From Octopus vulgaris (Eukaryota): a stretch of DNA of 64,000 nt. A program made the position numbers and the translations under genes. The stretch is taken from positions 62,062,001-62,126,000 of the forward strand of contig OX597832.1 of NCBI GenBank assembly GCA_951406725.2, written 5' to 3'. Numbering within the stretch: the first letter of the stretch is position 1; every line of letters begins with the position of its first letter. Of the stretch, positions 10,032 through 39,760 are shown one piece after another. The notes under the pieces were generated by a model. The model saw nothing but the letters and a program-made list of their open reading frames with translations. It had not been told where the DNA came from and searched no databases.

Positions 10032-10809
10032 GGCGTACATATATGTGGTAAGGTGTTGTAGTAATTTATACATTCCTTGTCGAGCTAGCAAAACATGTTC
10101 GATTATAGATTTGACAGAGTAGCGAATCACATGATCAATGGAGGTTGTTGTAGTCGTTTGCTACGTTGTGATATTTCCTCTGTCCCTACCAACAGACAAT
10201 GAGATCGACTGGACCGTGTCCCCTTTGCTTCTATTAGGCTCGACATATATACATAGTCACTGCTGAGACGCTTCCACAAAATAAAAAAAGAAAAGCCGTT
10301 AGAAAACCGATTATAGCAGCGACTCCATCTAAGAATATCTGAAGAAGGAATATTATTCCGAAATATCATATCAGACTATGGATGGCTCAATTACCACAGG
10401 TATATAGCCCATTGTCTGTATTATAGTGCATTGTTGTACCATTCAAAGCTTTTTATTCTTTATATAGATAGTGTTGGACTTTGCTGTGTCTCATTAAACT
10501 AGACTTGTTTTACGAATGTGAAGGTAGCGACCCCTAATGTCATTGATGCCTCTATTATACTATTATAGTTTTATTAATGAGAAGAGGAGCTGGGGACAAA
10601 GAGATTGTGACCGACAGAGAAGAAAAGGAGAGAGAGGGGGAAGAAAGAAAGAAAGATAAAGCGTGTAGAAAAGAGAAAGAAAGGAATAGGTTTAAATCTG
10701 TGATAATTATTGGATGCAAAAGATCCTAAAAAGACAGAGCAGGAGACATTGGTGAAAGTGAGAGAAAATAGGGAATGGCGCGCATTTAAAGAGAGATCAA
10801 ATAAGCGAG

Positions 10810-13830: not shown

Positions 13831-13871
<41 letters not shown>

Positions 13872-14842
13872 CGCAGTAATTGTGGATAATAGAAAATGCA
13901 ATAACCTACTAGCGGTTTTGATAAGGTTGATGAGAAACGTGTCCCACAACTGCGACTCAACGGAATTGGAGAAACATATACAACTCTCATTACATTGCAT
14001 GCAGTTCTCTGGGTACAACCAAGGAAACCGCAGCGTGGGGTACAAAGAAGCCATGATAAAATCTAAGACCCGCATAGAGAGTGACGCAAATGAAAGCTGT
14101 CCGCTATACAAGAGTGAATCATGCCATCGAATGGAGTGAACAAAGAAGATATGTAAGGACAACTCATGTTTTGTCGATGCTTCACTTGGAGGCGAACTAG
14201 CGTAGCATTTCAGAAAAGCCTTACATAAGATAAATCTACGGATAGAAAGGCCTGGAATTCTTATAAAATCCTTGAATTGTAGAACCTATCCATTTGGAAA
14301 GACTCCCTTTACGTATAATAAGAGTACAATGTATTGAATAAGCCCAGCGATAAACTGTAAAACTAGGAATGTAGTCTAAAGCATAAGGTGTACAGAGCGG
14401 CTGTGAAGAAACAGGATAACAACTTAAGTTGAAGAGACAGCCTGTAGCATAGGTGAGAGGACAAGTCAACACTGGCGCGAACGTAAGAAGGAGAGAAGTT
14501 CGTCAGTGCTATACCGATATGCAAAATCAGAAGGCGAGGGCTAGGTAGATTATATGGATGTTATAATATAGATTGCGCCTCGACAGAAGACGTGAACAGA
14601 GTAGTAACACCCCTCGCCTCGAAATGTGACGGCTAAAGACAGAAAAAAGAATAAATAAATAAAAGAAATGGGTACAAACTACACACATTTTTCTCTCTCC
14701 TTGTTTTTTCTCTGTGTCCCTTTCTGTAGAAGAGCGTAGGCTCGAAACGTAAAAGACTTTATCTATTCCTGTGCGTTATACTAATACATCTGTTTGTTTT
14801 CTACACCACCTGTTTTCGTCTTTTGTATTTTTCGTAAACTCT

Positions 14843-14844
<2 letters not shown>
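13872..14844 (+). mobile_element. 5'-truncated, decayed Penelope-like element: RT thumb, linker, GIY-YIG endonuclease, pLTR
   Basis: ORF 13882-14139 ([19 protein letters not shown]) then FVDASLGGELA, ERPGILIK..YPF, NCKTRNVV*SIRC and *VEETACSIGERTSQH, i.e. a decayed VVY-I-C..YVGET..ER..EH GIY-YIG motif. Flanked by (TA)n on both sides. Confidence 0.8.
14720..14755 (+). ncRNA. Minimal type-I hammerhead-like motif, variant core CUGUAGA plus extra A
   Basis: CTTT-CTGTAGA-A-GAGC-GTAG-GCTC-GAAA-CG-TA-AAAG: stem I CUUU/AAAG, stem II GAGC/GCUC, palindromic ACGU stem III. Confidence 0.6.
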
Positions 14845-14888
<44 letters not shown>

Positions 14889-14890
<2 letters not shown>

Positions 14891-15393
14891 AGAGTTTACG
14901 AAAAATACAAAAGACGAAAACAGGTGGTGTAGAAAACAAACAGATGTATTAGTATAACGCTTTTGCGTTTCGAGCCTACGCTCTTCTACAGAAAGGGACA
15001 CAGAGAAAAAACAAGGAGAGAGAAAAATGTGTGTCGTACCCATTTCTTTATTTATTTATTCTTTTTTCTGTCTTTAGCCGTCACATTTCGAGGCGAGGGG
15101 TGTTACTACTCTGTTCACGTCTTCTGTCGAGGCGCAATCTATATTATAACATCCATATAATCTACCTAGCCCTCGCCTTCTGATTTTGCATATCGGTATA
15201 GCACTGACGAACTTCTCTCCTTACGTTCGCGCCAGTGTTGACTTGTCCTCTCACCTATGCTACAGGCTGTCTCTTCAACTTACGTTGTTATCCTGTTTCT
15301 TCACAGCCGCTCTGTACACCTTATGCTTTAGACTACATTCCTAGTTTTACAGTTTATCGCTGGGCTTATTCAATACATTGTACTCTTATTATA
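14889..15393 (-). mobile_element. Inverted copy of the PLE 3' ~530 bp, tail-to-tail across (TA)n
   Basis: Near-identical reverse complement of 14314-14844 with a ~18-bp deletion near 14960; spacer 14845-14888 is pure (TA)n. Confidence 0.95.
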
Positions 15394-29189: not shown

Positions 29190-30446
29190 TACGAGAATGC
29201 GCTGAAAAGATCATAATTTGATTATGAAGGACTGATGCTAGTGCTGTGAAGTCTTGTACGCATTAGTTTCAATGCTTCTTATTAATAACTGCATTGTTTC
29301 TTTCGTGGTAAACTGACATCTAACTCTTCAAAGAAGACTTCAAATGTAACTAGTAGCGGTTTCTCTTGAAAAATTAGAAAATTTGGCATCGTGATACCAC
29401 AAAATATCTACTGAAAACGGTTTAGAACTCGAATACATTAATGCTGGCATGGTTACTATATTATGGAATGACACGGCAGTTTTATCAACAGTGCAAAAGT
29501 GGGCGGATGAATTTAGGAGGGGAACGGAACATCTTTAAGATGACTCAACGTTTGGACGTCATGCAAACGCCACCACCAAGTGGAACGTTGATCATGTTTA
29601 TCACATGATGATAGATGATAGGAGAGTGACTATAAATTAGATAACCGAATTTATTACCATATCCCGTGAGACAGTTGATAATATTCTGCACAATGAGATT
29701 GGCATGACGTAGGTTTCTGTTCGGTACCTAATAAAAAGCGCATCAGGCTGATCACATCACGGGAAAATCTGACGTTGTTTAAAGCAGATACATCTGGTTT
29801 ACTTAAACGTTTCCTAACCCAGGATGTTGTTGGCTTCATCACTTTGAACCAAGAACAAAGAGACAATCTTAGCAATGGAGACATCTCTCTTCACCTGTTC
29901 TAAACAAGGCCAAGCTCATTTTATCTGCAGGGAGGCTGATTGTCTCAGCTTTTTGGAATGTAGAAAGCATTGTGCTCAATGTGTTTAACGACTATCTTCA
30001 AAATGGCCACACCATCCATGGAATGTATTATGGCAACAGGGTGAGGCAGTTTCCAAAAGCTATCGAGACCAAACGCCCAGGAAAACTGAGTAAAGGTCTC
30101 CTGTTTTATCAGGATAATGACCCAGTACACAAGTCCTTGATTTCAAGGCCTTCTGTCTGTGGTTTTGGACTTGTTCATTACCCTCTCTATTCTGATTTGG
30201 ACCCATTTGACTATCAACAGTTCCCCAACATGAAAAGAACACTTGCCTCCGAACAAATTATCGCAGTGATGATGATGTCATATCTGGGGTTAATGACATT
30301 TTTGAGCTATAAGATGAAAGATTCTTCACCAATGGGATCCAACCATTGCAACAAGGATGGGAAAAATATGTGGACAACAAGGGGGTATTTGTTCAAAGAT
30401 AAACCACATTTGGTCGAGCTATAGAGTTTTCAGCCGAACCTCGTTA
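29190..30446 (+). mobile_element. Full-length (~1.26 kb) decayed mariner transposon
   Basis: ORF 29972-30424 has KRPGKLSKGLLFYQDNDPVHKS and HYPLYSDLDPFDYQQFPNMK (mariner HQDNAP..H and YSPDLAPSDY motifs). Imperfect TIRs ACGAG..GCTGAAAAG and GTTTTCAGC..CTCGT. Confidence 0.9.
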
Positions 30447-32452: not shown

Positions 32453-32655
32453 TTTGGGGATATGGTTTGAAAGATTCTTTATGGGAGTTCGTGTGTTGAA
32501 AAGGAACGCAGTTTGAGTAACGGACAGAGTATTGAAAAGGGTGCAAGATGCAACGAAAATTTTAGAAAAATAAAAACGAAGCAAGTGGAATGTTTACCGG
32601 TGAGTGTGTGAAATTATAAGGCACCAAAAAAGAATACCCTCCCCAGACACAACAG
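32453..32655 (+). mobile_element. Rearranged copy of the 39065-39432 element family, with hammerhead-like motif at 32529-32565
   Basis: 32453-32501 matches 39066-39112 directly; the remainder matches the reverse complement of 39121-39282; ends at (TA)n. Confidence 0.75.
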
Positions 32656-38288: not shown

Positions 38289-39064
38289 GGACAGAGAAAA
38301 TAAATCAAGTCTGTAGATCGCACTTACACCAAGCAGAATCCTTTAATCATTCGACCTAATTAATTATTACAGTAAATCCAGTTTTGTATTTTAGGATAAC
38401 AATATGTAGTAAAATATAACCCTCACAAACGCTCACGACTTGAAAATCTGTTGTTGTATATATCCAGGGATCGTTTACAATGAAAACGCAGCTGTTGTTT
38501 TCTTAGGGTCGACAATTTTGTACGAGAGAGTCTTGTAGGATGTTTAGAGCGAAGTATTAGTAATGGACACGGGAAAAGAATACAGAGAAGTACTGCTTGT
38601 AGCGGCATCTAGAGGCCAAAAGCCTTTATACACTGTCGTCCAAACCTGCAAGAAAATAACAGGAAATTACTTCAACAAATTATCACATCATTCACAGAAT
38701 GAACTACGATTTGCAGCGATTGTAAAAGGTATTTACACACAGCCGCTCGACATACTTAGATATAGTCAAAAATGGCCTGAACAAAAATCACATCGTTTAA
38801 GATATAAGGACAAATACTAGATTTTTTGCTCGTGTATAACTATGGCTGAAATAAGAATCGACTCATTGAGAACACTTTGATAATAGCTCTGCCCAAGTGC
38901 TATTGAAAGGTCACTAGTCAGATTGAGAAGCAGCTACTTTCAACTCGTGTCCTGAAAGCTACAATCTTGTGCATAAAAAACCCCCACCATATTATGGATA
39001 TGAACATTAAGAGATGCACAAATCCAATTTATGTATTTATAGAACTACTATAAATTTAGATTCA

Positions 39065-39432
39065 TTTTTGGATTTGGTTTGCAAGATTCTTTATGTGAGT
39101 TCGTGTGTTGAAGCATATTTTGTTGTGTCTGAGGGGAGTCAATCTCTATTAGTGCCTTATAAGTAACCACACTCACCGGTAAAATTTCCACTTATTTCTT
39201 TTTTCTTTTTCTGAAATTTTCGTTGCGTCTTGCAAACTTTTCAATTGTTTTGACTCTGTCCGTTATTTACACTGCGTTCCTTTGTTGTTTGTTTAACGGA
39301 CACAGTCAAAACTATGGAAAAGGTTGCAAGACGCAACGAAAATTTTAGAAAAAGAAAAAAGAAGTGTAAATTTTACCGGTGAGTGTAAATTATAAGGCAC
39401 CAAAAGAGAATGACTCTCCCTAGACGCAACAG
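39065..39432. mobile_element. 368-bp hairpin element with 13-bp TSD and a hammerhead-like motif in each arm
   Basis: AAATTTAGATTCA at 39052-39064 and 39433-39445; inverted arms 39121-39265 and 39294-39431. Confidence 0.85.
39312..39348 (+). ncRNA. Minimal hammerhead-like motif, U3-A8 core variant plus extra G
   Basis: CTA-TGGAAAA-G-GTTGC-AAGAC-GCAAC-GAAA-AT-TT-TAG; sister copies (39211-39247 minus, 32529-32565) have core TTGAAAA. Confidence 0.55.
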
Positions 39433-39760
39433 AAATTTAGATTCAAAATCGTGTTATCATGGTTTTTGCAGTCGATATCTTTTAACATAAATGCCTCCTC
39501 ATATGATCTAAGCTGTATGTGCTAGCCTTTCGATTCGCAGCCATTTGTTTCGATTCAATCCGAACGTACATCCAGTATAGCCTCGGGTCCACTAATGCCT
39601 GGTGCCATTTTAATCCTAATAAAAGACTGTCCGAAAGGTCGAGCGGTCCATTCTCTATGACAATTCCATTGTACTATTTCTGTCACTTTTTCCAGATAAT
39701 TAGTTTTATTAGCGGAGACCACCACCTGCTGCCAGAGGTTATATCATATTAATATATATA

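Follow-up and report, generated by a model that had tools for sequence, protein, structure and literature searches.

A 368-bp hairpin in the Octopus vulgaris genome is most likely a decayed head-to-head insertion of two truncated Penelope-like element 3' ends

Endonuclease-bearing (EN+) Penelope-like elements (PLEs) have been described as forming insertions with inverted, head-to-head pseudo-LTRs and a tail at one end only, in which the end of the tail or pseudo-LTR overlaps the first codons of the ORF; their targets are (TA)n tracts, their duplications measure ~8-10 bp and their tails 30-40 nt (Arkhipova et al. 2013, PMC3846280; Craig et al. 2021, PMC8557442). The hammerheads reported for metazoan PLEs include pairs 100-700 bp apart on opposite strands, and their cleavage is weak and dimer-dependent (Cervera and de la Pena 2014, PMC4209133), and those of the Schistosoma mansoni element Cercyon combine a U3-A8 core, a G10.1-C11.1 pair, an extra nucleotide that separates position 9 from 10.1, a short palindromic stem III and a short stem I. 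In Poseidon, a PLE of the lizard Anolis carolinensis (Frangieh et al. 2024, PMC11167929), two 3' end points within the start of the ORF bound the tail, insertion into AT-rich targets proceeds from uncut RNA, and read ends do not accumulate at the cut site. Non-LTR retrozymes are non-coding derivatives of PLE pseudo-LTRs with type I hammerheads and are organized in head-to-tail tandem arrays (bioRxiv 10.64898/2026.07.22.740005). The octopus PLEs given in one supplement table of Craig et al. (PMC8557442) belong to Naiad and Hydra families only, and our literature search, beyond whose reach lay the work of Lunse et al. 2017 on PLE hammerhead variants, found no report of octopus PLE hammerheads.

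The window, a 64,000-nt stretch of Octopus vulgaris DNA (contig OX597832.1), contains a hairpin that an original prediction made from its letters had described as a non-autonomous PLE-type unit with hammerheads on opposite strands. The features considered here are the following.

39052..39064, + strand: left copy of the 13-bp target-site duplication, its last 4 nt overlapping the tail end (possible microhomology)
39061..39119, - strand: tail, a ~59-nt 3' extension of arm 1 corresponding to codons ~9-27 of the PLE reading frame
39120..39293, - strand: arm 1, a pseudo-LTR of PLE family A truncated at its 5' end, to which the 28-bp "spacer" belongs
39211..39247, - strand: decayed U3-A8 minimal hammerhead of arm 1, with stem I broken and G10.1U
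39294..39432, + strand: arm 2, a 5'-truncated pseudo-LTR that ends at the short (no-tail) 3' site
39312..39348, + strand: decayed U3-A8 minimal hammerhead of arm 2, with U4G at 39316; a cut would fall after 39345
39433..39445, + strand: right copy of the 13-bp target-site duplication
32458..32500, - strand: third insertion, inverted tail only
32500..32655, + strand: third insertion, forward pseudo-LTR with a decayed hammerhead at 32529-32565, in (TA)n

When the coordinates were re-read in the sequence, the duplication AAATTTAGATTCA was found at 39052-39064 and 39433-39445 with 368 bp between its two copies, and the inverted arms and the third related copy were present as predicted. Possible microhomology is included in the 13 bp, because TTCA, with which the left duplication closes, is shared with the tail end, and the right duplication opens with two letters that match the continuation of the element. 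The inverted segments 39121-39265 and 39294-39432 are ~80% complementary in a gapped alignment, and the whole element folds into one long hairpin (-189 kcal/mol). The arms had been described as ~140 bp long and 28 bp apart; a gap does separate the segments so delimited, but when reverse-complemented this "spacer" reads as the family sequence that lies upstream of the arm. Arm 1 therefore reaches 39293, and the two arms join directly at 39293/39294. On the left, a one-sided extension of ~55-59 nt (39061/65-39119), absent from the original prediction, corresponds to the family tail. Arm 1 differs by 6.7% from the family A majority and arm 2 by 5.7% substitutions; the two have no private change in common. 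The ORF start codon lies inside arm 2, at 39410, and no ORF is found between the arms, a difference from the published EN+ insertions. The output of a repeat search over the whole window was dominated by microsatellites.

The arm is present in at least 1821 first-look candidate copies, 40 of which were scored, and it turned out to be the 3' end of a coding family. Upstream of it lies a CA/TA-rich, microsatellite-rich UTR of ~630 nt and, farther upstream, a reverse transcriptase (RT) with YVDD and a GIY-YIG-type nuclease domain with a Y-I-G-E-T motif, which answers the suggested search for flanking PLE ORFs. Among 30 loci selected through their nuclease, 21 have the arm farther downstream on the same strand, and arm plus tail also precede the ORF in L071 and L094; in L071 the tail continues into a reading frame that resembles the N-terminus of family B. 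A pseudo-LTR thus stands before and after the ORF, as it does in the tandem units of family B. Copies of family A lie ~5% from the majority (median of 156 copies) and their frames are broken. Family B is a younger sister with intact frames of 1311-1312 aa, those of L097, L099 and L100 carrying a long Asn-rich insert, and family C (L102-L106, L147-L176) is another younger sister. Segments of family A are 53-60% identical to the intact 1311-aa ORF of B, and B is 54% identical to C. The nuclease of C matches Pfam GIY-YIG (PF01541) over the cut-off (E 1.8e-5), and a Pfam search with family A fragments and the family B protein returned nothing over the cut-off. When a distant protein was used to look for more sister families, most of what came back was A, B and C again. 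The parent family has a single ORF with an RT followed at the C-terminus by a GIY-YIG endonuclease, its own copies in A being broken, and all six cysteines (a C-X4-C-X2-C linker plus two in the nuclease motif) were found in 16 of the 20 copies that could be parsed among the 30 loci. Judged by this domain content, the parent is an EN+ PLE family; a PLE origin of the hairpin had been proposed in the original prediction. The cysteine layout of linker and nuclease corresponds to the CX2-5CxxC linker and CCHH cysteines of the Neptune and Nematis clades (PMC8557442). Compared with the Neptune-like family D of the same genome, family A has a shorter linker and an RT only ~26% identical, which tentatively points to Nematis. 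As a side observation, the Neptune-like family (L123-L146) has 781-aa frames and a U3-A8 hammerhead without the extra nucleotide.

Family A copies have two fixed end sites, ~59 nt from each other and both within the first part of the ORF, and families B and C each have two 3' end points 56-60 nt apart, so that the tail is longer than the 30-40 nt of published EN+ PLEs. The two sites correspond to the pair of internal RT start positions mapped in the lizard PLE (PMC11167929). The tail is optional, is present on one end and matches the ORF start. Among outward-facing pairs not selected for layout, all 14, the window pair included, have one end with a tail and one without (chance ~6e-5, if ends are independent and even). 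Overall the proportion is 43 of 48 pairs, about half of the 48 having been found with a query of this layout; the other five are multi-copy loci or have ends running into microsatellites. Target-site duplications are AT-rich and vary in length: outside microsatellites they measure 10-15 nt in 17 of 26 pairs, compared with ~8-10 bp in the published cases, and are shorter or missing in the rest, when 1-2 letters shared with element ends and up to one mismatch are allowed. Hairpins under 460 bp have distinct arm junctions in 31 of 31 cases, three multi-copy loci being left out of the count; as every short hairpin has its own junction, the hairpin arises anew at each insertion. Arms mostly occur singly, and hairpins grade into inverted insertions of 0.7-2.7 kb with ORF pieces. 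Shared internal structure, as in a non-autonomous element, a fixed duplication, as in a MITE, and a tandem array, as in a retrozyme, were not observed; the window element is a head-to-head pair, in contrast to the retrozyme arrays, and is not amplified as a unit. Only one arm of 167, in a sample biased towards long arms, starts at the hammerhead cut site, in line with insertion from uncut RNA. Since arm start points are biased by the choice of query, an apparent clustering of arm 5' ends just upstream of the motif was set aside. Comparison of four sequences showed no conserved hairpin near either start site (-3.3 kcal/mol for the consensus). In L057, L111, L225 and L237 the two arms of an inverted pair share 3-7 private changes, which suggests later homogenisation or a common diverged template. 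For the window insertion itself, contigs of a second organism run from both of its flanks into the element, so it appears older than that split, and no empty site was seen among the joints listed in public contigs.

Combined, these results make it very probable that the window hairpin consists of two 5'-truncated 3' ends of an EN+ PLE family that were inserted head to head, most likely in one integration event, and have since decayed; its hammerheads are predicted to be inactive. By analogy with the lizard PLE (Frangieh et al. 2024), the protein of the element would nick both target strands ~13 nt apart; with uncut pseudo-LTR RNA as template, each nick would prime internal reverse transcription, in one case from the short site and in the other from the tail site, and both cDNAs would stop early and then be joined head to head. 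Poseidon is the source of the biochemistry and belongs to a different clade, without the cysteine linker according to Craig et al. (PMC8557442), and its hammerhead overlaps the start codon, whereas that of the octopus families, known from sequence, lies 56-101 nt upstream.

The original prediction's reading, in which a non-autonomous derivative of a PLE is mobile as a whole hairpin and can cleave itself when either strand is transcribed, could draw on the many hairpins of ~310-450 bp and similar form across the genome and on the derivation of each arm from a real hammerhead. It is very unlikely and largely refuted by the distinct junctions, by the gradation into longer insertions with ORF pieces, by the identity of the arms as the 3' end of a coding family and by the state of the window motifs described below. 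The inverted arms and the flanking duplication would also suit a MITE with long inverted repeats that derives from a DNA transposon of the cut-and-paste type, but the duplication has no fixed length, the tail makes the ends asymmetric and the mostly single arms belong to an RT-coding element; the linkage to RT/GIY-YIG refutes this origin, to which we give practically no weight. The inversion step is where a live rival is found, namely fold-back or self-priming of a single cDNA or RNA, or a later rearrangement, within a PLE origin. Self-priming is favoured by Arkhipova et al. 2013 (PMC3846280), the two arms of an insertion carry the same state in 174 of 206 subfamily-diagnostic cells (84%, compared with 51% in shuffled pairs), and some pairs share private changes. 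However, the arms end at different fixed 3' sites in every one of the unselected pairs and their 5' lengths differ; several pairs disagree at 2-4 diagnostic sites (L219 1/5, L222 2/5, L265 4/8), and the window arms have no shared private change. The two arms thus seem usually to come from the same subfamily, not always from the same template, and we regard single-molecule folding or rearrangement as unlikely, in second place to two-site priming.

The hammerhead was assessed separately at the level of the families, where the majority of 64 and of 156 family A copies reproduces the consensus given in the original prediction; none of the three window copies carries it. The motif lies 71 nt (A), 101 nt (B) and 56 nt (C) upstream of the start codon and has the core N3-U-G-A-N-N8-A / GAAA / UH with a 3-8 pair, G10.1-C11.1, the extra nucleotide and a palindromic stem III. 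Stem pairs were read by position in a script, as MAFFT alignments mis-registered stems I and III. Across A, B and C, a set of three related lineages, ten pairs give 30 of 30 Watson-Crick cells, and six of the ten are changed on both sides: 3-8, two in stem I, two in stem II, and 15.2-16.2. The 3-8 core pair is U-A in A, C-G in B and G-C in C, while G12, A13, A14, A15.1-U16.1, G10.1-C11.1, U4, G5 and H17 are kept in all three. The motif is not a chance match: a descriptor of the hammerhead matched once in 512 kb and not at all in 3 x 400 kb of Markov-resampled sequence, for a chance rate of ~1 per 500 kb. In another organism's reads and contigs, the 13 differences listed for the family C region avoid all 42 paired or core positions, four of them falling in loop II. 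By this comparative evidence, the family motif counts as a genuine minimal type I hammerhead, and the U3-A8 reading of the original prediction holds at the family level. That this swap is a known natural variant is in print (PMC3088659; for PLEs, PMC4209133), and a CUGANGA search would indeed miss it. The octopus family shares the Cercyon features listed above, with a stem I of only 3 bp and a stem II of 5 bp; the G3-C8 core and the C3-G8 core with A9C of its sisters are not among the variants in the available text of PMC4209133. G3-C8 has been reported to restore activity partly in hammerhead mutants (PMC8495972; PMC11167929).

Within family A, the outcome that was to count against the motif, conservation no higher than in its flanks, is nearly seen (divergence 3.0% vs 4.0%; polymorphic sites 0 of 29 vs 10 of 125, p 0.12; motif intact in 47 of 141 copies), but it is uninformative there because inserted copies decay neutrally, and the signal lies between families. 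Family B has its C3-G8 core with A9C in every copy seen, family C has G3-C8 with a 7-bp stem I, and one loose-end consensus of family C from another organism has U8; the A9C and the U8 are departures that strict catalytic constraint would not favour. A protein-binding or regulatory structure of hammerhead shape in the pseudo-LTR, whose cutting is no longer needed, would account for these departures, including an A6U in a fourth family, for the 3-bp stem I, for arms that run through the cut site and for the lizard ribozyme mutants that left in vitro insertion unaffected (PMC11167929). It would also agree with the RNA data, in which no read-end pile-up was found at the cut site of family A (one run) or C (three runs) in ~6% of each run, the libraries being orientation-balanced, possibly from other species and of a kind that may not show cleavage ends. 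Family matches among these reads occur in both orientations and none on the unique flanks of the window insertion, and they were taken as evidence of neither expression nor cutting. On the other hand, the core positions listed above are kept in A-C, the 3-8 pair, needed for the active fold, covaries three ways, and for related motifs cleavage in dimeric form or in the presence of protein has been reported (PMC4209133, PMC11167929). We consider a purely structural role improbable, to about the same degree as the fold-back origin, and prefer a hammerhead which, with its 3-bp stem I, likely needs a dimer or protein. MFE cofolding gave an active dimer for no family, in programs that do not model the active dimer. 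In the parent element the start codon follows the U3-A8 hammerhead by ~70 nt, and this hammerhead would cut weakly, as a dimer only (through its palindromic AAUU stem III) or with the protein of the element.

The copies in the window are a different matter, as none combines an intact core with foldable stems. The arm 2 motif has U4G (39316), and that of arm 1 has G10.1U (39236) besides two stem I changes (39246, 39213). In the third copy, stem I and stem II are each interrupted by one mismatch, and the consensus letter makes up 99.5%, 99%, 92% and 65% of depth at the lesion sites in public contigs (run X15), so the window lesions are private. Stem II forms with a probability of 0.99 in arm 2 alone, ~0.001 in arm 1 alone and <0.0001 in the fold of the whole element on both strands. 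Given the head-to-head geometry, transcription of either strand reaches the antisense arm ahead of the sense motif, and this arm is predicted to block the hammerhead fold on both; both copies are predicted to be inactive and locked shut. An Rfam scan gave no hammerhead family among the 150 of 238 matches listed. With private lesions in both motifs, cleavage on whichever strand is transcribed, as originally proposed, is unlikely in folding models, and the window copy is most likely ordinary genomic debris.

Other motifs and repeats were noted along the way. Families D, E and F, which are other repeats, have motifs of the same build, two of them with U3-A8, and L178:126-165 is a U3-A8 hammerhead with a palindromic stem III in an unrelated repeat. 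In the window, 13870-15393 is a decayed PLE of the same clade, 46% identical to family B, whose family has the core C-U-G-U-A-G-A (A6U) in 23 of 23 motif matches from 20 loci; despite its broken frame, it is duplicated tail to tail around (TA)n as a palindrome with 99-100% identity, which means either a late duplication or an artefact of the assembly. The segment 10258-10460 (motif at 10338, + strand) belongs to a repeat family whose minimal hammerhead is of the canonical C3-G8 kind; this family has at least 1627 candidates and a weak link to a PLE nuclease (1 of 15 loci). The frame at 29873-30424 resembles, by eye, a fragment of a mariner-type transposase.

The inverted layout, the tails and the U3-A8 motif have already been published for PLEs, and the octopus family is a new instance of them. 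Its importance as a family is modest. With insertions of this kind numbering from hundreds to thousands, it preserves a natural record of PLE integration, in which the rule of one tail and one no-tail end is what two-strand, two-site priming directly predicts for the genome. The young sisters, whose ORFs are intact and whose 3-8 pairs differ, offer substrates for testing PLE hammerhead cutting and its need for protein. A bolder reading, which we hold as tentative and somewhat doubtful, is that the hairpins preserve, as fossils, the work of a PLE integration complex that acts as a dimer, its two RT subunits each being committed to one start site, short or tail, and able to copy two different RNAs into the two target strands, and that the clade cycles its hammerhead core through U3-A8, C3-G8 with A9C, G3-C8 and A6U and keeps it active with the aid of its own protein. 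If this were true, a single genome would hold a natural mutational series of the catalytic core.
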